From: Candidatus Babeliales bacterium
Lineage (GTDB): Bacteria; Babelota; Babeliae; Babelales; RVW-14
Direction: 5' to 3'
NCBI GenBank assembly: GCA_041662445.1
Contig: JBAZSL010000007.1
Location: 7,064-71,063 of the forward strand
DNA length: 64,000 nt
Shown piece by piece: positions 9,229 to 46,337 of the stretch (position 1 is the first letter of the stretch; the number at the start of each line of letters is the position of its first letter). The notes under the pieces are model-generated. The model saw nothing but the letters and a program-made list of their open reading frames with translations, searched no databases and was not told the DNA's origin. The translations under genes and the position numbers were made by a program.

Positions 9229-10665
9229 CTACCAATCGAACGCCGAGGAGCAGAAACGATGGAGTACTAATAACAAAGCGGCAACTGATGAAGAGATAAG
9301 CAACCACCACCCTAGATAGCCAAGACGCCGTCTCAACCGTGGGATAACACCCCATCGATAATAGGCATCAGTGACAATAATGAAAAGCGTCATACAACGC
9401 ATTACAACCAACCCTACCAAAAGAGCTATGGGAGATGAGAAAGCAGCGGAAGATATAAAGCCATAGAAGACAGCGCACTCTAATAGCTTAAAAAGACATA
9501 ACTTATCGGCAGCCTCTTCAATCACATAAAACTGCTCATACAAAACAAAGAAGAAATCGGCGAAAGAGATGACAAGATATAAGAACAAAACCGACAACGT
9601 ATACGTAGCGACCTCTTCCTTATTAGCCACTTGAAGAAGAGCTCTAAAATTAACCCCAAAAAAGATAAAAATGGGGAAGACAACAGTGACAAACTTCTGA
9701 CACAAAACATCGAACGCCTCTTTTTTTACCGATTGCCCAGCATTCTTTACTTCGGCCAGAAGCGCGTTTCCCGAATAACCAACAATAGCCTTAACAACTG
9801 CCTGTAAAGCACTAACGGTAACACTGGCAATATAAAATAACCCGGCCGCAGCAAGCCCAAACCTGACGGCGAAAAGAGGAGTAAGGAAATTACCGGTAAA
9901 AAAGTTTCTCCCTACCCGTAAAACGTAATTAAAAAGTCGAGTAGTGACTAACCGCTTAACCATTCCCGCGGGAAATACACCTACGCCATCCCTATCACGT
10001 GGCAACCGTTGATAATAACGATACGTAAAAACTATAAAAACAATGACCGCTACCAACGAATCAATAAGATGTGGAATGAAAATGAGATTAGGGGTCAATA
10101 CAAACGCTCCTGTTGTATAGAACGTAACAAGAAACGGTATCCATATGCCACCCAAATAGACCCCAATAAAGAGAAATAATTCGACGATAACAACGTAGCG
10201 TGCTTGAAACGTTACGTGGAGGAAAAAACGAAGGAAGCTTCTGATTGCTTCTAAGAATACCAGCACCCCGATAAGACCAAATGCAGGAACCATAGTAAAA
10301 CGACTTTGGACAATAAGCGATGTGACCACCGCACATATAATGACAAAAGGGATGTGCGGGATGAGCGCATAACGCACCATGAACGTGCGGAATGTTTTTT
10401 TGCTTTGCGTAAAAATATGCAGAAAAGGCGGGATTGAGTTAGTTGCCCCAAGATCAGCTACATACGATGCAAAGTAAAGCATGGCAAGAAGACTGCCTAT
10501 CGTACCAAAAAGAGCAGGTGACATTACTTGAAGCAGGAGAAAGCAGTGCGCGACTTTACACGTCTCATACACAATGCTACCGGCAAGTGCCCAATGTGCA
10601 TTTTTATGAAATTTGCGCTGCACTTCAGGCGCAATGGCTGAGACAATATTGGCATTGATGGACAT
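9229..10665 (-). CDS. polytopic membrane protein, possibly MOP/Wzx-type flippase
   Basis: 478 aa with about 12-14 hydrophobic helices throughout. The length and architecture resemble polysaccharide/lipid-linked oligosaccharide flippases. No diagnostic motif was recognised. Confidence 0.35.
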   Translation of the reverse strand: MSINANIVSAIAPEVQRKFHKNAHWALAGSIVYETCKVAHCFLLLQVMSPALFGTIGSLLAMLYFASYVADLGATNSIPPFLHIFTQSKKTFRTFMVRYALIPHIPFVIICAVVTSLIVQSRFTMVPAFGLIGVLVFLEAIRSFLRFFLHVTFQARYVVIVELFLFIGVYLGGIWIPFLVTFYTTGAFVLTPNLIFIPHLIDSLVAVIVFIVFTYRYYQRLPRDRDGVGVFPAGMVKRLVTTRLFNYVLRVGRNFFTGNFLTPLFAVRFGLAAAGLFYIASVTVSALQAVVKAIVGYSGNALLAEVKNAGQSVKKEAFDVLCQKFVTVVFPIFIFFGVNFRALLQVANKEEVATYTLSVLFLYLVISFADFFFVLYEQFYVIEEAADKLCLFKLLECAVFYGFISSAAFSSPIALLVGLVVMRCMTLFIIVTDAYYRWGVIPRLRRRLGYLGWWLLISSSVAALLLVLHRFCSSAFDW

Positions 10666-10926
10666 GAAGATCTCTCACAATTTCAAGTAGTACAAACAAG
10701 CATTAAAAGAACTAGTATGCGGTAACTACGGGCTTTTTGAAATCAAAAAAAGCAAATTGTTCAAGCTGACAACATTTTTGCCTATACTCACAATATCAAT
10801 ACCTGGATAAGGGTTGTGGGGGACAGGGGAAGCAGGCTTACAAGTTATCCTAAAATGCATAGCTTGTAAGCCATTTCCTTTTTTAAGATCAAAAAAGCCC
10901 AAGTCTATCCATATTTTAGAGCGCGC

Positions 10927-10955
10927 TTGAGACACCTGCCGGTTTTTTGTAGTAT
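10927..10955 (+). promoter_or_regulatory. candidate sigma70 promoter for the 11001..12074 gene
   Basis: TTGAGA (10927-10932), a 17-nt spacer, then TAGTAT (10950-10955), about 45 nt upstream of the ATG. Confidence 0.4.
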
Positions 10956-11000
10956 GGACTGTAGCAACGAATACGGTGGTTAATAGCAGTTGGGTGTTTG

Positions 11001-12074
11001 ATGAGAATCTCTATGCCACGTTTCGAGACAATTATTCTTAGTGTTGGGCTTGCGGGGACATCTTTTTTAGTGCCCTCATCAATCATTTTCGCTGCAGATA
11101 ACAACTCCCCGTGTTGCTGTTTATCTCCAGATGATATTCACCGTAGTACGAGCGAACTCAAAACTCATATACGGGTTCTGCACCCGCATATTTCATTTAT
11201 CGCTGCGCTTAATGGACCAGCAACGGTTGATGGTGCCATTTCATGGTTCGACAACCGCATCAACACCATGAGTAAAGAAGTTGAAACTATCAAAAACACC
11301 GCCGACACTCAAAAACTTCACACTTTAGTAGATCAAGTTTCCTGGCTTATAGCCACAAAGAATACGCTTATTGAGCACAAGGCGCAGCTTAATGCAGCAG
11401 TTACATCAACACTAACTCAGTTCCCGTTTGCTCAGGTAAGTAAGAAAATACACTCTGTTGCTTTGCAACGCGCACTAACACAATTAGGATCCCACCGTAG
11501 ATCAGACTTGTTGCTTCAGTGCTGGGAGGTGCTTGTTAATTTTGTCGAAAAAGGTGCACAGGATGAACGGTTCATTGCTCTATTCGCTGATGATATTGCA
11601 CGGCAAAAGGGGGGCACCATCCAGGAACGATCACAGCGTTGTGCCGTGGGGGCACTTAAGGATATATCAATTTTCGTCTACATCTTTTATATCTTTCTCG
11701 CACAAAAATGCGCCCATTCATTTTTCAACGAGCAGGAATTCGCGGCGCTCAGCGCGCAACTCTTACCAATAACTGATCATCACAAGTCTTTATTTAATAT
11801 ATTGTCCGATATTATTCAGATTATCGCCATCATAGAGAAACTTCCCATTGAACAAACACTTGATGCAATGAAACGATTCGTTAAAACATTTATTGCTCTT
11901 ATCAATAAAATTGAACAAACCTCTGAGGGTGGTTTTGTTACTTGGTTACGCAGTAGGTGGCTGCTTGTTCCACTCTCCGTAAGCATTATAGCCATTAAGG
12001 CTATTCACCACTTTGTTACTAAAGACTCAGTTGTTGGGGCGGGAAGTGTTTATAGCGGCGGGTATTTGTTTTAG
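11001..12074 (+). CDS. hypothetical secreted/membrane protein
   Basis: ATG at 11001 (the track starts at a TTG at 10998). Signal-peptide-like N-terminus (…VGLAGTSFLVPSSIIFAADN), helical body and a C-terminal TM segment. No family recognised. Confidence 0.5.
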   Translation: MRISMPRFETIILSVGLAGTSFLVPSSIIFAADNNSPCCCLSPDDIHRSTSELKTHIRVLHPHISFIAALNGPATVDGAISWFDNRINTMSKEVETIKNTADTQKLHTLVDQVSWLIATKNTLIEHKAQLNAAVTSTLTQFPFAQVSKKIHSVALQRALTQLGSHRRSDLLLQCWEVLVNFVEKGAQDERFIALFADDIARQKGGTIQERSQRCAVGALKDISIFVYIFYIFLAQKCAHSFFNEQEFAALSAQLLPITDHHKSLFNILSDIIQIIAIIEKLPIEQTLDAMKRFVKTFIALINKIEQTSEGGFVTWLRSRWLLVPLSVSIIAIKAIHHFVTKDSVVGAGSVYSGGYLF

Positions 12075-35890: not shown

Positions 35891-36132
35891 GCCATAATCT
35901 CATACAATACTTTTTAGCCCCCTCTCAGTCCCCTTATTACAATGAACCCGTTCAGTGTTTTGCAAGCCTTGTGAGCAAAACGTATCGAGCCGCGAACACA
36001 TTTATACGTTAAAACCTTGCTTTTTCCTGGCAATACAGTATATTTTCCACTCTTTTCTCTAGATCTTTGACGAATATATAAGTATTTCTACTTGAAACTT
36101 TGTTTTAAAAAGCGTTGGTTTTTGACATATTT

Positions 36133-36162
36133 TTGAAATGAATATTGATTTTCTTGTAGAAT
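36133..36162 (+). promoter_or_regulatory. candidate sigma70 promoter of small-RNA candidate
   Basis: TTGAAA (36133-36138), an 18-nt spacer, then TAGAAT (36157-36162). An overlapping TTGACA lies at 36122-36127. Confidence 0.4.
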
Positions 36163-36168
36163 CGCTTA

Positions 36169-36282
36169 TAGTTTAGTCACATCGAGTTTGGGAACAGTCA
36201 CCGCTCGATTTTAAATAAGACTTCATTACTACTCTCCTTTCTCCTTTTTCCGCCATGCAGTCCTTGCATGGCGGTTTTTTTT
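36169..36282 (+). ncRNA. candidate small RNA (~115 nt), promoter-to-terminator unit in the recF-downstream gap
   Basis: It lies downstream of the promoter candidate. There is an internal stem ATCGAG…CTCGAT (36181-36209), a CU-rich tract ACUCUCCUUUCUCCUUUUUCC, and a perfect terminator. It contains no ORF. Confidence 0.4.
36250..36282 (+). terminator. Rho-independent terminator
   Basis: CCGCCATGCA-gtcct-TGCATGGCGG (perfect 10-bp stem, 5-nt loop) followed by T8 (36275-36282). Confidence 0.85.
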
Positions 36283-36309
36283 ATGCGTGCGAGGGAAAAT
36301 ATTTTTTGC

Positions 36310-36425
36310 TTTTTGGTTGAAAAACGGGGTTGTTTGGAGATATTTTTGGTTAAAAATCGGGGTCGAGCTTGGAGGTTTTTGGTTGAAATTGCAAGTGAAG
36401 CGCTAGGAATGTAGGAAAATGGAGG
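36310..36425 (+). repeat. three tandem 33-nt direct repeats (TTTTTGGTTGAAAAACGGGG… core)
   Basis: Units start at 36310, 36343 and 36376, an exact 33-nt period. The first two end in TTGGAG. The third degenerates after about 15 nt. Confidence 0.7.
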
Positions 36426-36460
36426 AAAACAGCAGTCGTCGCATGGCGGTTTTTTTTTAT

Positions 36461-36566
36461 TCTACCCAGCTGCCGCCCCCCCCATGGACATTCGTCGTCC
36501 CCATAAACATTTGTCGTCCCCGCGAATGCGGGGACCCATTACACAAATAGGTTTCGAAAAAGTCTA
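36461..36566. repeat. intergenic element family, copy C (rearranged/truncated)
   Basis: ATTCTACCC… resembles the copy A interior. TCGTCGTCCCC and TTGTCGTCCCC are the reverse complement of the GGGGACGAC subrepeats. Hairgpin gtccccgc-gaat-gcggggac. The right end AGGTTTCGAAAAAGTCTA matches the copy A end and stops 3 nt before the stop codon of the 36569..37246 gene. Confidence 0.5.
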
Positions 36567-36568
36567 TG

Positions 36569-37246
36569 TTACTGCTTTTTTAGGATGAGAAGTGACGAGG
36601 TGATTGTTGTATTCTGTGCATTGGTAAAACCGCGCGCAAACTCCTTGGCGGAAGTAAGCATTTTTTTGAAGTTCTCAAAGCTTATGCTGTTTTTATAAGC
36701 AGGCTTAATAGTTAATTTCTTTTTATTACTAGTGCGTATGCCCACCGTAGCTATGAGATTTGTGATAACGGTGCCAAGTTTTTGAGCATTTGTCTTATAT
36801 ACAGTATTGTCGAGTTCTGCAGTTTTTGGCAGATACCCTTCGTTCGCCAAAAGTTGATTAATGGCCGTCACGGCATTGGCATATTCGCCTGCGGTAAAAA
36901 GTCCCTGTATGGCAATAACTTTAACGATGAAATTTTTCTGTAACGCAGTGACGCGGTCGGCTAGATCTTGTTTGGCGGGGTTTGTAGTTCCTTCTGATAG
37001 TATGCTAGTTTTTTGCGATGTACTTGCGGTTCCTGCTGATGATGTTTGGCTTGGTTTTGTTATCGCAGATGAAGTCGATGGAGTTTGTACTGAAATGGCA
37101 CTTGTTGAAGTAGGTCGGACGATGAGTGTTCCCCCCGCTTGGCTACTCGTGCCTGATGGATTTACCCCTCCGCCTATTCGTGGTGATACCATGCAGAAAG
37201 GCGCAAAGATAGTGATCGTGAGCAAGGTTATGTGTTGGTTGTTCAT
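36569..37246 (-). CDS. secreted Ser/Thr-rich hypothetical protein (225 aa)
   Basis: Hydrophobic N-terminus, then a long S/T/P-rich low-complexity region (…TSTSAISVQTPSTSSAITKPSQTSSAGTASTSQKTS…) and a helical C-terminal half. It is the last gene of the co-oriented array. Confidence 0.55.
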   Translation of the reverse strand: MNNQHITLLTITIFAPFCMVSPRIGGGVNPSGTSSQAGGTLIVRPTSTSAISVQTPSTSSAITKPSQTSSAGTASTSQKTSILSEGTTNPAKQDLADRVTALQKNFIVKVIAIQGLFTAGEYANAVTAINQLLANEGYLPKTAELDNTVYKTNAQKLGTVITNLIATVGIRTSNKKKLTIKPAYKNSISFENFKKMLTSAKEFARGFTNAQNTTITSSLLILKKQ

Positions 37247-37276
37247 TTGAGCTCCTATTTTTTGTTCCTATGGTGA

Positions 37277-37316
37277 AAACTGAGGGGGCGCCGCCGTTCG
37301 TTCGGTCACCCCTTTT
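37277..37316 (-). terminator. possible intrinsic terminator after the 37327..37806 gene
   Basis: The minus strand reads GGGGUGACCG-aacgaa-CGGCGGCGCCCC (imperfect GC stem) followed by CUCAGUUUU. Confidence 0.35.
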
Positions 37317-37326
37317 GAATTCAGGC

Positions 37327-37806
37327 TTATCCGAAGGTTTCTTCTTTTTCATTAATTTCGTTGAGCAGTTTTTCAAGTCTTGTCTGCTCTTTTTCAAGCA
37401 CTTTGACGACATCAGGTTTGCCCTCGGCTTGGGCCTTGAGTGTTTCTATTTCTTTTTTTGCGTTATTAACAGTACGCCGTGCTGAGCCAGTATCAGTCGT
37501 TGCCGTAACTTTTATTGCATGAATATCGGCATATTTTGTTTCAACAAGATATTTGACGACTTTGGCGTGGCCTTTGTCTATGGCAGCGGTGATGGCGTCG
37601 CCAATTCTGTTATACTGTGTTTGAATAATATCTGGATTATCTTTGATAATTTTTTTTACTTCTTTAAGATCTCCATTCGTTGCCGCAACAATGAGCTCGT
37701 TTGCTGTCTTTTCTTCAACTTCAGCATAATGCTCTGTTAGAAGCACCCCGTATCCATACGGCATCACCATCACCGCCGCTAGCGCTATAAATAGTATCTT
37801 GCGCAT
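37327..37806 (-). CDS. small secreted ankyrin-like protein, array paralog (159 aa)
   Basis: Signal peptide MRKILFIALAAVMVMPYGYG. ANK-like helices (ATNGDLKEVKKIIKDNP…AAIDKGHAKVVKYLVE). C-terminal KPDVVKVLEKEQTRLEKLL motif shared with neighbours. Confidence 0.65.
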   Translation of the reverse strand: MRKILFIALAAVMVMPYGYGVLLTEHYAEVEEKTANELIVAATNGDLKEVKKIIKDNPDIIQTQYNRIGDAITAAIDKGHAKVVKYLVETKYADIHAIKVTATTDTGSARRTVNNAKKEIETLKAQAEGKPDVVKVLEKEQTRLEKLLNEINEKEETFG

Positions 37807-37829
37807 AAAATCTCCTTTCAGTTTTTGGT

Positions 37830-38345
37830 TTATCTATAAAATATTGCGGTGCGCTGCTCTCTATCAATATTCCTATCGATCATCTTCTGAAGTCGCGCTC
37901 GTTCTTTTTTAATAACTTTGACAACTTTGTCATAACGTTTGTAGTCGCTTGTTTTCTTGTCATTGCCACGCTTAGTTTGTGCTTGTTCTAAGAATGGGGT
38001 TAATTCATTTTTTGCGTATTGTAGGTCTGTATTAGTTTTTGTATTGATTTTGGCGTTTTTTGTTGTGATAAGATATTCGACGACTTTGGCATGGCCGCTG
38101 TCTATGGCAGCTTTGATTGCCTCATCGAGGACGCCGTATGTTGGGTCGGTGAGTTCGGGAGTTTCTTTTTTTAAATCTTCTTTGATGAGCTCTTTTACTT
38201 TGGATAGATTGCCGTTTTCTGCATTACTTATAAATTCGTTTTTTAAGAGTGCGAATTGATCTCGTTCTTCTCCACGCATCTGCGCCCCATATCCATACGG
38301 CATCACCACCGCCGCAGCTAGCGCTATACATAATATCTTACGCAT
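37830..38345 (-). CDS. small secreted ankyrin-like protein, array paralog (171 aa)
   Basis: Signal peptide MRKILCIALAAAVVMPYGYG, AAIDSGHAKVVEYLI, and C-terminal DYKRYDKVVKVIKKERARLQKM. Confidence 0.65.
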   Translation of the reverse strand: MRKILCIALAAAVVMPYGYGAQMRGEERDQFALLKNEFISNAENGNLSKVKELIKEDLKKETPELTDPTYGVLDEAIKAAIDSGHAKVVEYLITTKNAKINTKTNTDLQYAKNELTPFLEQAQTKRGNDKKTSDYKRYDKVVKVIKKERARLQKMIDRNIDREQRTAIFYR

Positions 38346-38368
38346 AAAATCTCCTTTCAGTTTTGTGA

Positions 38369-39451
38369 TTAGAGGTACGGATTGTAATCAGGTGCCGGCG
38401 CAACCTCTGGGTACCATGGTCCTCCAGCCTGATTTGGGTCTGGAGTATCCTTCCAGCCAATCCGCCGTTCACGCTCCATCAACTCGCGGTGTTCTCGTAT
38501 CTGCTGCGCTTTTTCTAGCTTTTGAAATCGTGCTTGTTCTTTTTCAATCACTTTGACGACGACGTCGTAGCGTTTGTAGTCACTTGCAAGGCCAGCGTTC
38601 CATTTTTCACGTTGTTCTTGTGCTCGCGTTAGTAATTGTGATAACCATTGTATTGCATCTTCATCTATCTTTATTATGGTGCTTGCTGTTTTGATAAGAT
38701 ATTCGACGACTTTGGCGTGGCCATTGTCTATTGCAGCTGAAATGGCGGGAGTGATGTTGGCTCTAATACGATCTAGATATTTTCCTATGAAAAACTTTAC
38801 TATTGGAAGATGGCCTTTAGCTGCGGCTGCTATGAAAGCGTCATCAAAATATTTTTGCTTTATAATCCAAGTAACTTGTTGTACGAAATTTTTTACATCG
38901 GATAACTTACCGTTCGTTACATATTCTTGGAAAACATCTACAGCTGCTTTGGGTTGCGCGCCAAGCTGTAAGAGCAAATTTACCATCTTGAGATCTTGAT
39001 TTCGGATTGCTTGGATCAACGGTGTTGTACCGTCTATATCTTGTGCTTCCAGGTTTGCGCCCTTTCCCTTAAGATAGCTAACTATCTTATAATTCCCTTG
39101 AGCGACGGCCCAGATTAATGGGGTTCGTTTTTTGAAGTCTTGTGCTTCTAAATTTGCATTTTTCCCTACGAGGTATTCTACGATGTCACGTTTCCCGTCA
39201 ATGACGGCCTCGGTTAGTGGGGTTGTTCCCCACTCATCACGTTTTTCTATGCCTACCGTATCAATTAAATTTTTCACTTCCTCTAGGTCACCAGCTTTAA
39301 TCGCCGCGAAAAGTTGCTCTTGTCGGTATTTTTTTTCTTTAGCAATGGAAAATTTGCTTTTTGGCGCTTCTCCTTGCGCGGTGTGAAGCACGTCGCTGCT
39401 GCATACCATCACCATCGCCGTCGCAAGCGCTAGGCACACTATCTTACGCAT
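38369..39451 (-). CDS. secreted ankyrin-repeat protein, array paralog (360 aa)
   Basis: Signal peptide MRKIVCLALATAMVMVCSS. Canonical ANK repeats (GTTPLTEAVIDGKRDIVEYLVGKNANLEAQD…RTPLIWAVAQGNYKIVSYLKGKGANLEAQD…GTTPLIQAI…). C-terminal DYKRYDVVVKVIEKEQARFQKL motif. Confidence 0.8.
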   Translation of the reverse strand: MRKIVCLALATAMVMVCSSDVLHTAQGEAPKSKFSIAKEKKYRQEQLFAAIKAGDLEEVKNLIDTVGIEKRDEWGTTPLTEAVIDGKRDIVEYLVGKNANLEAQDFKKRTPLIWAVAQGNYKIVSYLKGKGANLEAQDIDGTTPLIQAIRNQDLKMVNLLLQLGAQPKAAVDVFQEYVTNGKLSDVKNFVQQVTWIIKQKYFDDAFIAAAAKGHLPIVKFFIGKYLDRIRANITPAISAAIDNGHAKVVEYLIKTASTIIKIDEDAIQWLSQLLTRAQEQREKWNAGLASDYKRYDVVVKVIEKEQARFQKLEKAQQIREHRELMERERRIGWKDTPDPNQAGGPWYPEVAPAPDYNPYL

Positions 39452-39460
39452 CTCATCTCC

Positions 39461-40087
39461 TCATTGTTTTTCGTCGCTGCATGCTTTTTGGCACTCTTCC
39501 AGGTATTCTGTAATCTTAGTTTGTTCGTAATACCGCGCGTAATCTAAGGCGGTTGGCTTGTCTACAGACGATTGATCCTTCGCTGCGAGCGCTTCTGCCC
39601 GTTGACCTTGTGGTATTGCTTTGAAAAGCTTTTTTACAATTTCAAGATTTCTGGTTAGAACGGCCGTTATAAGTGGCGTGTGTCCGCTCACATAGTTGAT
39701 TAATAAATCGTATTTTTTTTGTTTGACTATTTGGTCGATGAGATAAGCTGCTATTTTAGAACGGTGAAATCCAATAGCGTCGTCTAAAGCACTTGTCTGC
39801 AGCTCTGCTCCCTGGTCTACCAGATACTGTACTATTTTAAAATTACCTTTTAGAATTGCGGAATTTAACGGGAAGAGGTTCTTGCCGTATTTGCCCAGAA
39901 GCTCTGTTTTCTCCTTCGTGGTTTCAAGTAAGCGTTTAACATCTTTTAGTCGTCCCCGATCAATTGCCCTGAAAAGTTGTGCTTGTTCGTTGGGCTCGTC
40001 TGAACTTTCTACTTGCGCGGCGTTGACGTTCATGTTGCACATCATCAGGATGCTGGTTGTGAGAACTCCACACACTATTTTTTTCAT
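39461..40087 (-). CDS. secreted ankyrin-repeat protein, array paralog (208 aa)
   Basis: Signal peptide MKKIVCGVLTTSILMMCNMNVNAAQVES. ANK units (…FPLNSAILKGNFKIVQYLVDQGAEL…, GHTPLITAVLTRNLEIVKKL). Confidence 0.75.
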   Translation of the reverse strand: MKKIVCGVLTTSILMMCNMNVNAAQVESSDEPNEQAQLFRAIDRGRLKDVKRLLETTKEKTELLGKYGKNLFPLNSAILKGNFKIVQYLVDQGAELQTSALDDAIGFHRSKIAAYLIDQIVKQKKYDLLINYVSGHTPLITAVLTRNLEIVKKLFKAIPQGQRAEALAAKDQSSVDKPTALDYARYYEQTKITEYLEECQKACSDEKQ

Positions 40088-40105
40088 TGAAAACCTCCTT
40101 TGGGT

Positions 40106-41176
40106 TTAATCTTTTTTGGCTGGAGCCTTTTTGTGTTGTGCTTTTTTTAGTAGCGATACAAATTTTTTGTAGTCTGGGTTCCATGTAGCACGCGCAGTTG
40201 CTGCACCTATATCCTTATCGGTGGGCTGAACGCCTAGGTCGACAAGCATCTTTGCCATCGATAGATTTTCTTTATCGATTGGAACCATAAACACACTAGT
40301 TCCATCCGATTGTACTGGATTCGCTTTATGCGTTAGGAGGTATTTTATGATGCCAGGGTTGTTTGCCTTGACGGCTAAGATTAATGGTGATCCCGCTCCT
40401 GAAACACCGTCTACATCTACATTACATGTTTCTATTAGATACTTTATGATTTTCATGTTGCCCATGGCGACAGCTTTGCTTAAAGGCGTATAGTCCGAAT
40501 TAGGTTCGTTCGGGTCTGCCTTTTTTTCTATGAGATACGTAACGATATCAAGGTTACCGGTTCCAACAGCTTGGATTAAAGGGTTCTCATCATAGCCATG
40601 CTGTTTCCACGTATTTTCAAGTAAGTTTATTCCAAACAGCTCTGCCGCCTCTATGAGCTTTTTTATCAGGTCGAAGTTTCCTGTTTCTATCGCAAGCATT
40701 AAGACGGTGCGGCCTTCACACATATCGGTTAGCACATTACGGAGATCCGCAGCTGTTAGAATTTCACTCTTTCCGTGCTCGATCATCTTACCAATGAGGA
40801 ACTGAGATATCGGTATATGACGTTCGGCGAGAGCATGGTATAAAGCTGTTTTCCCTTCAGTATCTTGGGCATCTAGTTTTGCTCCGTTGTCCACAAGACA
40901 TTGTACTATCGCACCATACCCACGGCTGGCTGCTACCGTTAAAGGTGTTCCGCGGGACACAGCAGGGCCTAAAAGAGGTTGGGGGAGGAGTTTATTAAGA
41001 AGCTCATCTTGCTCGGCCTTGGGGGTAGCTGAGAGTAAACGTTTAACTTCTGCCAGGTCGCCGTTCTCAGTTGCTTCCAACATTCGATATAGGCAATCTT
41101 TTTTTGCTACTTGCTCCCCGTATCCATAAGGCAGCACCATCGCCGCCGCTAGCGCTATACATAGTATCTTACGCAT
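40106..41176 (-). CDS. secreted ankyrin-repeat protein, array paralog (356 aa)
   Basis: Signal peptide MRKILCIALAAAMVLPYGYG and at least 7 ANK repeats (GTPLTVAASRGYGAIVQCLVDNGAKLDAQD…GKTALYHA…, YTPLSKAVAMGNMKIIKYLIE…). Confidence 0.85.
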   Translation of the reverse strand: MRKILCIALAAAMVLPYGYGEQVAKKDCLYRMLEATENGDLAEVKRLLSATPKAEQDELLNKLLPQPLLGPAVSRGTPLTVAASRGYGAIVQCLVDNGAKLDAQDTEGKTALYHALAERHIPISQFLIGKMIEHGKSEILTAADLRNVLTDMCEGRTVLMLAIETGNFDLIKKLIEAAELFGINLLENTWKQHGYDENPLIQAVGTGNLDIVTYLIEKKADPNEPNSDYTPLSKAVAMGNMKIIKYLIETCNVDVDGVSGAGSPLILAVKANNPGIIKYLLTHKANPVQSDGTSVFMVPIDKENLSMAKMLVDLGVQPTDKDIGAATARATWNPDYKKFVSLLKKAQHKKAPAKKD

Positions 41177-41218
41177 CGAGTCACCTTTTTCAGCTCTTGT
41201 TAAGTTGTGTGATTATTT

Positions 41219-43369
41219 TCACGTGATTACTCGCACTTTTTCAAGAACCGGTACTTTTCCCTCTTCAAGTTTTTTTCCCTCAGGTCTGATAGGTCCGGAA
41301 GGTGCGTCTGGAGCCCCCTGTATAACCGCATAGGCTTCATCTTTTTTTTCTTCATCACCTGCTTTTTGGGCCTTTGCTGCTGCTGCATCTTCTTTAGCTT
41401 TGCCGGCAACCGTTGCTGCTTCTTTTTTCTCTTCAACAGCTACTGGTTTTTTCGCTAGTCTTTCTCGTGCTGCTTGTATGTGCTCACCTATCTCATAACG
41501 CTGAGGATGCCTGCCTAAGTCGGCTTGTGCTTCCCTCAGCTGATCATCTGTGAGGTCAACATTATCGATGATATATATGGCAAGCTTCTTTACACCTGTA
41601 CACGTCTGAAAACCAGCTCTAAAGATAGCTTCGGAAAGTGCGAAACTTATTCCGTCCGCGCGTGGTTGATCAAGATAAGGCATCTCACCCGAACCCTTCT
41701 TCTCCTTCCATCGGGAGACTTTGTACAGTTTTTCCTTTAAAGCAGCGGCCATTTTAGGGTTTTTTTCTTTTACCATAAAATACGCTATTTCAGCTGGTAC
41801 ATCATCGAGGGAAGGCGCCTCATCGAAAGATAGAAATTGTTTATAGTATGTATCCATGAGATGCATCACTACTTCTTCGTGACCTTTTACCGTAGCAGCA
41901 AGCAACGCAACTTGGAAGGCTGATACAATGGTTTCCATGTGTTGGTCGATCGGACGCATCTGTTCTTTGCGCTGTGCGATATCTGCTTGGCAAGCGTCCC
42001 AAAAAGGCTGGCGAAATTCGAAATATTTTCTACGACCTTCTCTGCTATCGCGATCTTTTTCGATGCTGCCTATCTCCGCTGCAATCTTATCTGCCTTGAT
42101 TTTTTGGACTGTGTATTTAGCGGCTAAACTAGCGCTTGATTTTATTACCGCGTCAAGGTCTCCTGCTTCCGCCGCTTGTATAAGATCTATTTTGAGTTTT
42201 TCAATATCTTGATCTTGTAAGCGAGCCCGTAAGCGGGCTTGTTTTATTTTTCCAGCCACATAATCACTGAGAGGATTGGTTTTCAAGCAATCCTCTGGAA
42301 AATCTTCCGGCGTTGACCCCAAGAAGTTATCGCCAATATATTGGGCGATTTCCTGCAAGCCCTTAGTCCGCAGTCGATCGTAATCAAGATAAGAGATAGC
42401 TTTGCGCAATACGTCACGCTTCCCGAACCCAAAGATTTTATTAATATCGTCATCACAACGTTTAAGTAATGCCCATATCAAATATTCCAGATTATAACCG
42501 CCACTACTATCGAACTGCTCTAATGGTTGAAACTTTACGTAAAGTGATCCAACATCTTTTTTAAAGATCTCTTTAATCACTGTTCGTAGCGCAGGCGTTG
42601 CAAGCATATAAGCTATTTCAAGTGGCGTATTGATGTAGTCGTGCCGCAATGAAAAAAAATATAGAAATTTTTCATAGTATGTATCCAAGAGATAGTGCAC
42701 TATCTCTTTTTTGTCTTGTGCTGTAGCGGCAACTAAAGCAACTTCGAACGCACTTTGAATGATTTCTTTACTGACTTGATCGTCTGTTTTAACACGGGCT
42801 AGGCGTCCGCTTATAGTTCGTACCTCGTCTAACTCACCTGATTCTGCGGCCTGTATAAGTTGTCGCTTAAGTTGCCCAAGGATTTTCGCATCATCTTCTG
42901 TTGCTTCTTCATAGGAAGGTGGTGGTAACTCTTTATAGGGAGGAGGTGGTAGGACATAGGGCGGTGGTGGGACACTTTTTTGTATGGCTGCTTTGTAGGA
43001 AGGTAGTTGTTCCTTGTTAGCGTTTGTTAGTAGTTTTCTAATAGCTTTATAATTCTTGTCTTTAGGATCTAGCGTGGCAAGAGCTATAGATGGATCTGCT
43101 CCTTGTTTAAGGAGATATTCTACTATTTTGGTATCTCCAGCACGGACGGCGTGAATTAAAGGTGTATTGCCAATCTCCTTATAAGGTTTTTCAAGGAGAC
43201 GTTTATCTTTTTCGTTAATCAATTTTTCAACCGCGTTGAGGTCTCCTTTATCTATCGCGGTAACAAGTTGTAGTTCTGGACTTTCTATTTGTGCAGCATT
43301 GAGTGGCGATGCGATAAATGTTGTGAGGATGGCCGTAATGAGGGCTATCGGGCGCGTATATTTCTTCAT
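41219..43369 (-). CDS. secreted ankyrin/PPxY-motif protein (716 aa)
   Basis: Signal peptide …FIASPLNAAQIES. One N-terminal ANK pair. PPPPYVLPPPPYKELPPPSY cluster (aa 133-153). Two copies of an LIQAAExGxLD…ALVAAT…Y-rich helical module. Lys/Glu/Ala-rich tail. Confidence 0.8.
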   Translation of the reverse strand: MKKYTRPIALITAILTTFIASPLNAAQIESPELQLVTAIDKGDLNAVEKLINEKDKRLLEKPYKEIGNTPLIHAVRAGDTKIVEYLLKQGADPSIALATLDPKDKNYKAIRKLLTNANKEQLPSYKAAIQKSVPPPPYVLPPPPYKELPPPSYEEATEDDAKILGQLKRQLIQAAESGELDEVRTISGRLARVKTDDQVSKEIIQSAFEVALVAATAQDKKEIVHYLLDTYYEKFLYFFSLRHDYINTPLEIAYMLATPALRTVIKEIFKKDVGSLYVKFQPLEQFDSSGGYNLEYLIWALLKRCDDDINKIFGFGKRDVLRKAISYLDYDRLRTKGLQEIAQYIGDNFLGSTPEDFPEDCLKTNPLSDYVAGKIKQARLRARLQDQDIEKLKIDLIQAAEAGDLDAVIKSSASLAAKYTVQKIKADKIAAEIGSIEKDRDSREGRRKYFEFRQPFWDACQADIAQRKEQMRPIDQHMETIVSAFQVALLAATVKGHEEVVMHLMDTYYKQFLSFDEAPSLDDVPAEIAYFMVKEKNPKMAAALKEKLYKVSRWKEKKGSGEMPYLDQPRADGISFALSEAIFRAGFQTCTGVKKLAIYIIDNVDLTDDQLREAQADLGRHPQRYEIGEHIQAARERLAKKPVAVEEKKEAATVAGKAKEDAAAAKAQKAGDEEKKDEAYAVIQGAPDAPSGPIRPEGKKLEEGKVPVLEKVRVIT

Positions 43370-43427
43370 TACTTAGATCTCCCTTCTCCCTTTTTTGGTT
43401 AATACACACAAAGGTACGTGTGGTTAG

Positions 43428-44912
43428 TTACGCAGGAACTAGCACGCGCGCAGGTGCTACTTTCTCTGGTTTTTTCTCAACAGGCGGCACTTCTTCTGGC
43501 TTTTCGCCAAGCTTTCTCAGGCGATCTTCCGCGTTTGCGACAAATGCAGCGTCTGCTTCAGCTTTTTTGCGTTCGGCTTCTTCTCGAGCCAAACGGGCAG
43601 CTACTTGTTCTTGCGCTACTGGTACTGCTACAGGTGCCGCTTCTTTTTTCTCTTCTTCTCCTTTCTTTTCTTCTACTGCGTCCATCGCCGCTTTTTTTGT
43701 TGCGTATAGATATGCACGCAATTCTTTCTTGCGAAGCTCTATCTTTTCTATATCGATCTGTGCACGATCTTCCTTTGTGAAGAGCTCTTCCACAATATAT
43801 GTAATAATGGGCCCTAGGTCATCCCAAAGATCATCCGAGCAAGCGCGTACAGCGCGATTAAAAGCAGCGATAAGAGGAGTCTCCCCAGTCCTTGCTGGAT
43901 GGTCTTCTTTAGCAAGCTTTCTATTGAAAATTCTTTGCATTTCGCTTCCATATTGTGCAAACAAAGAGGCTATTTGAGTTGGCATGTCGCCACGACCTGC
44001 AAAAACGTTTGGGAGCGCTATGAAGTTATAGTAGTCCTCTCCCATGAGATGGGCTACTATTGCTTCGTGGCCTTTTGCGGCAGCTGCAACCAACGCAACT
44101 CGGAATGCTGCTTCCCGCATCCTTCGAAGCGGGATCTTGTCATAGGAACTAATGTCAAGGTTGGCTAGGCGGGCGCTTATAACTTTTACCGTTTCTAAAT
44201 CCCCTGATGCTGCGGCTTGTATAAGTTGGTGTTTAAGTAAGTTAAGAATAGTTGTTTGAGATTCTTCAGACATTTCCTCTTTTTCTTCACTGGGGAGCAG
44301 TGGTGCTGATGGAACTTGTGGTGCTATTTTCGCTACTTTTGCTTCTGCATCATAAGGCGGTAGTTTGACATCTTTTTTTATGGCTTCTTCATAAGAAGGT
44401 GGTGGCGTGTCGTCTCCATAAGGCGGTAGTATGTCTCCTCTTATTGCTTGTTCGTATGAAGGAGGAGGTGTTTGTGGTCTCAAGCGACCAACGGGGACGC
44501 CGCGGCCGTCACGTCTCTTTTGAGGTGGTTCTTGCATTTGCGCGAATTTTTTTTCAACTTCGTTTTGTTCTTCCTGTAATAATTTTACGATGCCTGCATA
44601 TTTTTTGGGAGTTAGAGATGTTGCAGCTAAGGCTTCGGCATAGTGCAGTGGCGTAATAACAACGCCGGGACGGGTGCTTTTAAGGTATAGCCAAATCGCC
44701 CCTTTTTCATCAACAAAGTCCTGTGGCATTTCGGCGAAGATATCAGCGCCTTGAACTAATAGTTTTTTTACGTCTTTAATATTCCCATCTCTGATCGCGA
44801 CAAACAGGCGATCTCTTGGACTTTCTACTTGTGCCGCGTTGACGCTCGTGCTGCACATCAGCAGGATGCCGGTTACGATGGTTATCAGGTTCATATATTT
44901 CTTCATCTTCAA
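43428..44912 (-). CDS. secreted ankyrin/PPxY-motif protein (494 aa)
   Basis: Signal peptide …LMCSTSVNAAQVES. PPPSY, LPPY, PPPSY and LPPY motifs (aa 148-187). One copy of the LIQAAASGDLE… module. Charged tail. Confidence 0.8.
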   Translation of the reverse strand: MKMKKYMNLITIVTGILLMCSTSVNAAQVESPRDRLFVAIRDGNIKDVKKLLVQGADIFAEMPQDFVDEKGAIWLYLKSTRPGVVITPLHYAEALAATSLTPKKYAGIVKLLQEEQNEVEKKFAQMQEPPQKRRDGRGVPVGRLRPQTPPPSYEQAIRGDILPPYGDDTPPPSYEEAIKKDVKLPPYDAEAKVAKIAPQVPSAPLLPSEEKEEMSEESQTTILNLLKHQLIQAAASGDLETVKVISARLANLDISSYDKIPLRRMREAAFRVALVAAAAKGHEAIVAHLMGEDYYNFIALPNVFAGRGDMPTQIASLFAQYGSEMQRIFNRKLAKEDHPARTGETPLIAAFNRAVRACSDDLWDDLGPIITYIVEELFTKEDRAQIDIEKIELRKKELRAYLYATKKAAMDAVEEKKGEEEKKEAAPVAVPVAQEQVAARLAREEAERKKAEADAAFVANAEDRLRKLGEKPEEVPPVEKKPEKVAPARVLVPA

Positions 44913-44927
44913 ATATCCTTTCCCTCT

Positions 44928-45467
44928 TTATTTCTTTTTTGGGGTGAGCATCTTTACAATTTTTTTGTAGTTTGATGCATAGTCTGTACGTATTTCCAAA
45001 GCTTTGGCAATCTCGAGTGCAGTGTAAGAGCCAGTTCCTTCTTCTGCAAAGAGCCCGTCGAGACTGAATTCGCCTTCTTTTTCGATAACTGTTGTTTTTG
45101 TTGTGTCTGCGCCCATTTTGAGAAGATATTCAACTATTTTCGGATTGCCTCTTATAACGGCGTAGATGAGAGGGGTTGGGGAGTTTTCGCCGTCTTCTCG
45201 CACTTCGAGAAGGTGTTTATCTTTTTTGGTAATTAATGTTTTGACCGTTTTGGAGTCTTTTGGGGTTATCGCGTTAAATAATTTTTTGATTTGAAGGGAT
45301 GCGTAACGGGAGGGTAGTTGGTGGTGGCGTGGAGGTTTGGGTAGGTTGAAATTTTTAGCTAGTGGTGGCGGTTGAGAAGTTTGAGCTACTAGGGGTGAGA
45401 TGAAGATGGTACTGACGAGGAGTGGTAAATAAATAATTTTCTTTATTTTCACTATGTTTATCCTCAT
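44928..45467 (-). CDS. secreted ankyrin-like protein, first gene of array (179 aa)
   Basis: Hydrophobic leader, Pro-rich linker, and an ANK unit (SPTPLIYAVIRGNPKIVEYLLKMGADTT). RBS AAGGAG lies 9 nt upstream of the ATG at 45467. Confidence 0.65.
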   Translation of the reverse strand: MRINIVKIKKIIYLPLLVSTIFISPLVAQTSQPPPLAKNFNLPKPPRHHQLPSRYASLQIKKLFNAITPKDSKTVKTLITKKDKHLLEVREDGENSPTPLIYAVIRGNPKIVEYLLKMGADTTKTTVIEKEGEFSLDGLFAEEGTGSYTALEIAKALEIRTDYASNYKKIVKMLTPKKK

Positions 45468-45476
45468 TCTTTGTTC

Positions 45477-45562
45477 TCCTTATTTTCCTTAACGTCCTTA
45501 TTATTTATTCTTATATCCTTATCCTTATCTTTATTTGTTATTTGTATGTTTAATATCCTTAT
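45477..45562 (-). promoter_or_regulatory. AT-rich leader/promoter region with six (A/U)UAAGGA repeats upstream of the ankyrin array
   Basis: On the + strand, TCCTTAT occurs at 45477, 45495, 45516, 45522 and 45556, and TCCTTAA at 45486. On the gene strand these read ATAAGGA/TTAAGGA. The proximal copy is the RBS. Confidence 0.45.
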
Positions 45563-45821
45563 GTCTTTTTTATTCATCCTTTTTTTTAATTATTAAAGCC
45601 TTGTTTAGTTTAAATATTTATTTTTAATGCCTGGGAATAAGCATAGGCAAGATGGAATGATGAAAGCAATAATTTTGCTCGTCATGGCAATAAATTAACA
45701 TAATAATCATTATCAGACGTTATGGATATGCACCCTTTCGCCGCGAAGCCCACCAGCAACACATCGCCTGAGAGATTTTTGATTGATCCAATATTTGGTG
45801 ATTCTGGGTCGAGATCTATAA

Positions 45822-46337
45822 CTACAACTTCATTTGATACAGTGATTGCCGCTGGCACGCCCAAACGCCACAGAGGCATATTGCAAGGGCATCGGTTACA
45901 TCCGCTCGTTCGATAGCGCCAAATTCCGTCAGCCCCGGGAATAGCCGTAGTACCATCGCCGCAACCTGCTCTTTACTCGCCCCGCCAAAGCCCGTAGTTG
46001 CCATCTTAACTTCCCGCGGTGCAAATTCCGAAAGCGTCAACCCCTTTTGGTCGGCTAATAAATAAAGGATTCCCCGAAGATACCCCAACTTAAGAAACGT
46101 TTGCGCATTCTTACCCAAGAACGAAGTCTCAAGCGCAAGCGCCGTAACATTAAAGGTTGCAATTTTATCGTTCATGAAATTATAGAACTGCCCTACTCGC
46201 TGGGACAAGTGGTGCTGCGGGCTCATTTTTAAAAAGCCACAATCACGCAGAAGCACCCGACGGTCCTCTATGCTACTGACGGCATAGCCGGTTATATGAA
46301 AACCAGGATCAACGCCAAGAATAACCGTTGGCTTCAT
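45822..46337 (-). CDS. ruvC: Holliday junction resolvase RuvC
   Basis: ILGVDPGFHITGYAV…, …LALETSFLGKN…, …DVTDALAICLC. The ATG overlaps the dnaB stop (TAATG). Confidence 0.9.
   Translation of the reverse strand: MKPTVILGVDPGFHITGYAVSSIEDRRVLLRDCGFLKMSPQHHLSQRVGQFYNFMNDKIATFNVTALALETSFLGKNAQTFLKLGYLRGILYLLADQKGLTLSEFAPREVKMATTGFGGASKEQVAAMVLRLFPGLTEFGAIERADVTDALAICLCGVWACQRQSLYQMKL

Follow-up and report, generated by a model that had tools for sequence, protein, structure and literature searches.

Proline-rich motifs that end in tyrosine (PY motifs, PPxY or LPxY) are ligands of class-I WW domains (PMC8509885, PMC2824488). Drosophila Comm and human PRRG4, two adaptors of Nedd4-family ubiquitin ligases, are barely conserved outside an extended PY motif: GLPSYDEAL in Comm, where it is critical, and the matching GLPSYEQAV in PRRG4 (PMC5578492). 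Another adaptor, NDFIP2, requires three PY motifs (PPxY, PPxY and LPxY) to bind and disinhibit WWP2 (PMC12720080). Spacing matters as well: close PY pairs bind WW tandems synergistically, with a gap of two residues giving the strongest effect and a gap of three a modest one (PMC6744271). Pathogens are known to imitate the short linear motifs of eukaryotes, and for PPxY such mimicry is documented in viruses. The Dependentiae are a bacterial phylum whose cultured members infect amoebae and a chrysophyte (PMC6561590, PMC4776705). One of them, Chromulinavorax destructans, encodes 98 ankyrin proteins, 78% of them with a signal peptide, which have been read as secreted effectors or vesicle cargo (PMC6561590), and the TM6 genomes share components of type II secretion (PMC4776705). 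The phylum has a large exported ankyrin arsenal without assigned function, and no injection system is known for it. Here we analyse a 64,000-nucleotide stretch of DNA (the window) from Candidatus Babeliales bacterium (contig JBAZSL010000007.1, positions 7,064 to 71,063), focusing on a gene for a 716-residue ankyrin-type protein that is predicted to be exported and carries a cluster of PY motifs.

Results

A PY cluster in an ankyrin-type protein

The 716 residues are encoded by a minus-strand open reading frame (ORF; 41219..43369), and residues 134-153 read PPPPYVLPPPPYKELPPPSY, i.e. PPPPY-VL-PPPPY-KEL-PPPSY (nucleotides 42911-42970). The original prediction was a triple PPxY cluster, and three PPxY matches are indeed present (PPPY135-138, PPPY142-145 and PPSY150-153); the span it gave for them, 42911-42973 or residues 133-153, holds the cluster and, in addition, Val133, which lies outside it. 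A fourth PY-type motif of the L type, LPSY122-125, sits 10 residues upstream and has no aligned PY motif in either of the two relatives described below. The class-I WW ligand pattern [LP]PxY occurs at four sites in this protein and at four in the adjacent 494-residue protein. The cluster had also been placed after an N-terminal ankyrin pair and before the acidic stretch EEATEDD, which agrees with Pfam ankyrin matches over residues 37-94, predicted helices up to residue 131 and EEATEDD at residues 154-160. The main features of the gene are as follows.

41219..43369, minus strand: coding sequence of the 716-residue ankyrin-type protein with the PY cluster, predicted to be exported; from the ORF list, with a GGGAG Shine-Dalgarno-like site 5' of the ATG
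43295..43369, minus strand: predicted Sec signal peptide, residues 1-25 (MKKYTR, a 17-residue hydrophobic core and LNA/AQ), read from the sequence
43088..43261, minus strand: N-terminal ankyrin repeat pair, residues ~37-95 (Pfam Ank_2, E=1.1e-11; Ank, E=2.6e-9)
42995..43006, minus strand: LPSY, residues 122-125, additional L-type PY motif
42911..42970, minus strand: PY cluster, residues 134-153, in a linker predicted to be disordered (sequence and AlphaFold)
42906..42951, no strand assigned: 24-nucleotide tandem duplication (Tandem Repeats Finder)
42890..42910, minus strand: acidic stretch EEATEDD, residues 154-160, the first residues of which are part of the extended motif PPSYEEAT
42215..42892, minus strand: helical module copy 1, residues 160-385, opening with a divergent ankyrin pair (LIQAAESGELDEV ... 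AFEVALVAATAQDKKEIVHYLL; alignment)
41435..42214, minus strand: helical module copy 2, residues 386-645, an internal duplicate of copy 1 (BLASTP and alignment; the profile matches P0001 in two stretches)
41222..41434, minus strand: low-complexity C-terminal tail rich in Lys, Glu, Ala and Pro, residues 646-716 (sequence; predicted local distance difference test score, pLDDT, ~30)

The cluster exceeds chance. From the composition of the 716-residue protein itself 0.09 PPxY matches are expected against the three seen, and none of 5000 shuffles contained at least three. Across the whole window (47 non-overlapping ORFs, 19,371 residues) 0.8 matches are expected and six are found: three in the 716-residue protein, two in the adjacent 494-residue protein and one in a 94-residue ORF that is probably spurious. 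Part of the multiplicity is local in origin. A 24-nucleotide tandem duplication at 42906-42951 (1.9 copies, 86% matches) spans PY units 2 and 3, VLPPPPYK and ELPPPSYE being its two copies, so that the triple is in part a local duplication. The first two PPxY motifs are separated by three residues (V-L-P) and the second and third by four (K-E-L-P). From the same duplication, slippage has altered the number of PY motifs in this lineage.

Conservation of the motif in a paralog and an ortholog

The gene directly upstream encodes a paralog that aligns with the 716-residue protein at 29% identity (BLASTP, E=9e-24) and has a PY cluster of its own, with sites PPSY150, LPPY162, PPSY171 and LPPY184.

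43428..44912, minus strand: paralog of 494 residues with a leader, weak ankyrin repeats, PY linker, one helical module and a charged tail (BLASTP)
44352..44471, minus strand: PY cluster of the paralog, residues 148-187 (PPPSYEQAI, LPPY, PPPSYEEAI, LPPY)

A word-indexed search of 5.8 billion clusters with the whole 716-residue query gave a single homolog outside the window, P0002, a 515-residue protein from a Joint Genome Institute (JGI) metagenome; the other matches are ankyrin proteins. P0002 lies on a 91-kb contig that is syntenic with the window, in the order rplI-dnaB-ruvC-P0002-ankyrin genes, as compared with rplI-dnaB-ruvC-179aa-494aa-716aa-ankyrin genes here. It shares 38% identity with the 494-residue protein, of which it is the ortholog. 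The PY linkers of the three proteins read:

716-residue protein: LPSY...PPPPY-VL-PPPPY-KEL-PPPSYEEAT
494-residue protein: TPPPSYEQAI-RGDI-LPPY-GDDT-PPPSYEEAI-KKDVK-LPPY
P0002: TPPPSYDEAI-QEDEGEAV-PPSYEEAT-EKDV-LPPY

All three members have PY motifs at the same place, and P0002 keeps three of the four found in the 494-residue protein. In the three-way alignment PPSYEEA is the longest invariant run (seven residues), followed by NAAQ at the predicted signal-peptidase site and by MKKY, both likewise invariant across the family. The shared PY residues are encoded by different synonymous codons (TCC, TCA or TCT for Ser; CCA, CCT, CCG or CCC for Pro; GCA, GCC or GCT for Ala), indicating that identity has been kept at the protein level, by selection on the peptide, and does not reflect recent gene conversion. 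Conservation of the motif block in homologs had been named as a check on the original prediction, and the block is kept in both the paralog and the only outside ortholog despite 29-38% identity. In the 13.8-kb locus of the related genome, [PL]PxY occurs in the P0002 ORF only, three times. The conserved form within the family is [LP]-P-S-Y-[DE]-[EQ]-A-[IT], for example PPPSYEQAI, PPPSYDEAI or PPPSYEEA[IT], and the extended form [LP]PSY[DE][EQ]A[ITLV] matches the critical PY motif of Comm and PRRG4. A disordered setting, conservation that stands out locally and several copies are together the usual mark of a functional short linear motif, and we consider it highly probable that the PY block is a selected motif of this kind.

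Family size and origin of the 716-residue gene

When 1.84 billion representative proteins were screened with a helical-module profile, only three matched at E<1e-30, namely the 716-residue protein, the 494-residue protein and P0002; a further 53 matches cover just ~20 residues of an ankyrin helix. P0048, P0053, P0057 and others, where the match looked longer, were considered as family members and rejected as ordinary ankyrin proteins that lack PY motifs. Because the profile search yields these three proteins only, the family is, as far as these sequence searches reach, an orphan confined to two related genomes. Used by itself as a query, the PY linker matched nothing but itself, at a database size where short motifs cannot reach significance. 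The identical 716-residue protein is called on four public contigs. Allelic variants of the motif were sought in contigs of four metagenome runs that cover both genes, which gave short or identical fragments only. Downstream of ruvC, the related genome has one PY gene (10001-11548 of its locus) and the window has two (41219-44912), plus the 179-residue ankyrin gene. The 716-residue gene is a lineage-specific duplicate that doubled its helical module too.

A scan of genome contigs with the family alignment returned no true homolog, only a motif-sharing protein from the Coxiellaceae. This unrelated protein of 229 residues is encoded in the metagenome-assembled genome contig CBDCAS010000017 (9500-10189 of its locus, plus strand); it has no Pfam family and contains two adjacent hydrophobic helices that form an Inc/Ndfip-like hairpin. 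Its C-terminal tail holds SSPPSYQQV, LPPPSYEQAT and APPSI; a second intracellular lineage may have converged on the extended PY motif.

Predicted structure

AlphaFold2 models of the 716- and 494-residue proteins were built on alignments of three sequences each. For the 716-residue protein the mean pLDDT is 61; residues 30-130 are modelled as helical with pLDDT values of 70-85, and residues 131-158, containing the PY block, as coil with values of 37-43. The PY block is followed by two helical regions and then by the disordered tail. A buried or structured segment would have spoken against the original prediction; the segment came out as disordered, a predicted coil at pLDDT ~37-43. In the 494-residue model, residues 128-213 are coil with pLDDT <50, and short helical turns directly follow each PPSY. 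In solved complexes of Nedd4 WW domains with peptides of ENaC and Comm, a helical turn follows the Tyr directly, which would fit the turns predicted here.

The domains that flank the PY linker are ankyrin-like. Pfam detects only ankyrin families in the 716-residue protein, and both copies of the helical module begin with an ankyrin-like pair (LIQAAESGDLD.V ... AFQVALVAAT.KGHEEVV.HLM). A Foldseek search of the full model against the PDB gave weak matches to DARPins (the best), TRPA1 and solenoid proteins, with template modelling (TM) scores of ~0.1, and the helical-module profile gave marginal matches to PDB sequences, ankyrin only. The sole hydrophobic segment of the protein is the N-terminal leader; the remainder consists of soluble helical repeats. 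We take the protein to be Sec-exported, as predicted from this leader. A lipoprotein signal was considered for the family and rejected: the 716-residue leader has no Cys, and the leaders of the other members have no good lipobox.

The surrounding gene array

The two PY genes belong to an array of nine co-oriented genes, eight of which encode leader-bearing ankyrin proteins. Such an array, like the groundwater origin of the DNA, is consistent with a place of the genome in the Babeliales (Dependentiae), given the ankyrin set of C. destructans (PMC6561590) and the type II secretion components of TM6 genomes (PMC4776705). Four leaders share VNAAQ(V/I/M)ES at the cleavage region, those of 39461-40087, 41219-43369 and 43428-44912 (all minus strand) and of P0002 (10001-11548 of its locus), and the other leaders of the array share MRKILCIALAAA.V(M/L)PYGYG, which points to two leader classes within the array. 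Within the array (36000-46000) no terminator-like sites were found on the minus strand, and promoter-like sites are no commoner than in shuffled sequence; these observations are compatible with co-transcription from upstream of 45467.

The first gene of the array (44928-45467, minus strand; 179 residues) encodes a proline-rich stretch straight after the leader (SQPPPLAKNFNLPKPPRHHQLPSRY) with PxxP-type spacing. A 360-residue member (38369-39451, minus strand) has a Pro/Tyr-rich C-terminal tail, ...PDPNQAGGPWYPEVAPAPDYNPYL (APDY, NPY), which may be another short-motif tail. Two ORFs of 120 and 185 residues at 43418-43977 on the plus strand, antisense to the 3' end of the 494-residue gene, are probably artefacts of the tail rich in Lys, Glu and Ala.

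Discussion

A candidate effector that could dock host WW domains

We propose that the 716-residue protein is a candidate effector of a protist-associated intracellular bacterium, exported by Sec and built from ankyrin repeats, and that it engages WW domains of the host through several motifs at once, much as Ndfip or Comm does. On present sequence evidence we give equal weight to this proposal being right or wrong, and we are just as evenly divided on the narrower statement that an exported effector displays the PY block as a ligand for WW domains. In its favour are the excess of PPxY over chance, the conservation of the motif and its predicted disordered setting, the match to the grammar of Comm and PRRG4, the importance of several PY motifs in NDFIP2 and for WW tandems, the array of leader-bearing ankyrin genes and the similar tail of the Coxiellaceae protein. 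The 716- and 494-residue proteins would leave the bacterial cytoplasm via their Sec leaders and then pass beyond the periplasm. The flexible linker between the N-terminal ankyrin pair and the helical module or modules would display three to four PY motifs, of the form [LP]PSY[DE][EQ]A[IT] or PPPY, and would use several of them together to bind class-I WW domains in a host protein, for which a WW-HECT ubiquitin ligase of the Rsp5/Nedd4 type is the preferred candidate. With the helical repeat modules binding something else, the protein would act as a soluble adaptor like Ndfip or Comm, bringing the WW protein to a site or target that suits the bacterium and possibly activating it there; or else the bacterial protein might itself be ubiquitinated and sorted. 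That the protein leaves the periplasm, reaches the host cytosol, binds a WW domain and acts as an adaptor is our inference, as is the nature of the partner. Delivery of the 716-residue protein into the host cell would follow by analogy with the biology of the Dependentiae (PMC6561590, PMC4776705).

Several points weigh against this proposal. Two of the three PPxY motifs of the 716-residue protein stem from the fairly recent 24-nucleotide tandem duplication, and the conservation of the motif comes from three proteins of two related genomes. Low pLDDT is weak evidence of disorder in models built on so few sequences. A Sec leader brings a protein as far as the periplasm; the remaining steps, further export and entry into the host cytosol, are assumed. 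Nor is there a membrane anchor, unlike in Ndfip, Comm and PRRG. On the host side, the DNA of the window occurs in groundwater metagenomes only. Finally, a survey of 44 taxa found C2-WW-HECT (Nedd4-like) ligases in Opisthokonta and Apusozoa only, with other HECT families in Amoebozoa and heterokonts (PMC3673628), whereas the known hosts of Dependentiae are Amoebozoa and a stramenopile.

Set against these hosts, the range in the survey suggests that the partner may be a different kind of WW protein; WW domains are pan-eukaryotic. Three options are possible: the host of this lineage is on the opisthokont or apusozoan side, the partner is another WW protein, or the sampling of the 44 taxa missed WW-HECT ligases of protists. 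NEDD4, ITCH and YAP, the partners named in the original prediction, are animal proteins and serve as a mechanistic model of the partner, not as an identification. That the partner is a ligase of the Nedd4/Rsp5 type, activated in the fashion of Ndfip, we consider possible, though not likely. Similarly tentative is the boldest form of the proposal, in which a bacterium would for the first time be seen to supply its own equivalents of Ndfip/Comm adaptors: soluble proteins that leave by Sec combined with type II secretion, or by vesicles, and need no injection machine, with a cluster that binds several WW domains of one Rsp5/Nedd4-type ligase and frees it from autoinhibition while the ankyrin modules aim it at host targets. 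Were this true, either this Dependentiae lineage infects a host of the opisthokont/apusozoan type, or WW-HECT ligases (or equivalent WW proteins that read PY motifs) occur in protists more widely than the surveys indicate. A bacterial family in which several PY motifs of the Comm/PRRG4 form are conserved would be a directly testable case of a bacterium using the WW-domain code, and the PY peptide would offer a handle on the host factor and perhaps on the host lineage, as bait for protist WW domains.

Other explanations of the PY block

The block could be a functional short linear motif with a reader other than a WW domain. An SH3 domain is one candidate, as PPPPYK is present in the 716-residue protein and fits PxxPx[KR]; profilin, EVH1 or, after phosphorylation of the Tyr, SH2 domains are others. 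Tyrosine-phosphorylated effector mimics exist in bacteria, and YEEA, YEQA and YDEA resemble the acidic pYEE-type sites of EPIYA-like bacterial effectors; the fact that conservation runs past PPxY to Y-[ED]-[EQ]-A also favours such a reader. PxxPx[KR], however, is not kept in the 494-residue protein or P0002, and the LPPY copies are conserved between these two proteins yet lack the acidic YEE context. The invariant part is the class-I WW core (P-P-S-Y) with the acidic/hydrophobic extension of Nedd4 adaptors, and taking these readers together we find the explanation rather unlikely. Slightly less likely still is that the protein stays in the periplasm or on the bacterial surface, with the proline-rich block acting as a spacer or as a ligand for a bacterial partner and no host mimicry involved. 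Proline-rich spacers are common in envelope proteins, and the leader is of the Sec type only, with no dedicated effector-translocation signal recognisable in the protein. On the other hand, a spacer needs no invariant PPSYEEA amid diverging surroundings, and WW domains are, to our knowledge, essentially eukaryotic. Leader-bearing ankyrin repeats are, moreover, a hallmark of the putative effector sets of the phylum (PMC6561590).

It seems improbable to us that the block arose neutrally, as a slippage-prone, low-complexity Pro/Tyr tract with no specific function. The tandem duplication of units 2 and 3 and the small, fast-evolving family are what such a tract would look like, but the motifs are kept between the paralogs (29% identity) and between the orthologs (38% identity), while their codons have changed synonymously. 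Slippage also leaves the non-repetitive spacing in the 494-residue protein and P0002 unexplained, and the excess of PPxY in the window is confined to the 716- and 494-residue genes. A PY-type nuclear localisation signal (NLS) read by transportin is very improbable. KSVPPPPY (716-residue protein), KLPPY (494-residue protein) and KDVLPPY (P0002) do fit the loose C-terminal consensus of such signals, [KRH]-x(2-5)-P-Y; this consensus is very degenerate, the best-conserved copies here are P-S-Y and not P-Y, and the region is acidic and not basic. A YxxPhi sorting signal (YKEL, residues 145-148) was also considered and set aside, as it is not conserved in the relatives.

Comparison with known systems

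The ankyrin proteins of Chromulinavorax destructans and Babela massiliensis are similar in combining a Sec leader with ankyrin repeats and in forming large, fast-evolving sets of paralogs that are seen as secreted factors for manipulating the host (PMC6561590, PMC4776705), with the difference that PY motifs or targeting of WW domains are not described in these two papers. Viral late domains (filovirus VP40, retroviral Gag, arenavirus Z) resemble the proposed mode of action in that a pathogen PPxY in a disordered segment recruits Nedd4-family ligases of the host (PMC6803667, PMC6874086). They differ in being parts of structural proteins of budding, usually in single copy, whereas here the carrier is a soluble bacterial ankyrin protein with several copies of the motif. 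A viral PPxY late domain was rejected as an identity, since the cluster is encoded on a bacterial chromosome, next to ruvC-dnaB-rplI; three PHROG families, all without a known function, gave the only matches, and these are weak (best E=1e-4). Among bacterial proteins, Salmonella SteD and Ehrlichia TRP32 and TRP120 likewise use, or are modified by, WW-HECT ligases. SteD, unlike the family described here, activates WWP2 with no PY motif, relying on the C2 domain of that ligase and on TMEM127, a PY adaptor of the host, and TRP32 lacks a canonical PPxY, whereas the present family has several canonical PY motifs of its own. A non-exhaustive search of the open-access literature turned up no bacterial effector that has been characterised and bears a canonical cluster of several PY motifs.

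The closest parallels are the eukaryotic adaptors. Comm and PRRG4 share with the present family the extended motif grammar, additional PY motifs nearby and very low conservation elsewhere. In contrast to it, they are animal proteins that span the membrane once and act in receptor sorting, there is no homology beyond the motif, and nothing here indicates an animal host. Ndfip1 and Ndfip2 (Bsd2 in yeast) carry three clustered PY motifs in a flexible region, comparable to the three to four PPxY/LPxY motifs within 20-40 residues in the window, and the multiplicity in Ndfip serves to bind several WW domains and to release the autoinhibition of the ligase (PMC12720080). They are eukaryotic polytopic membrane proteins, in contrast to the bacterial, ankyrin-type proteins here, which have no membrane span after the leader. 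Searches of Pfam, profiles and the PDB gave no homology to the Ndfip, Comm or PRRG families, only to ankyrin. Of the traits of such adaptors, the proteins described here have the cluster of at least two PY motifs, including one of the extended form, and do not have the membrane-protein architecture with a cytosolic PY tail. The 716-residue family, then, does not belong with Ndfip, Comm or PRRG, but it may work like them.

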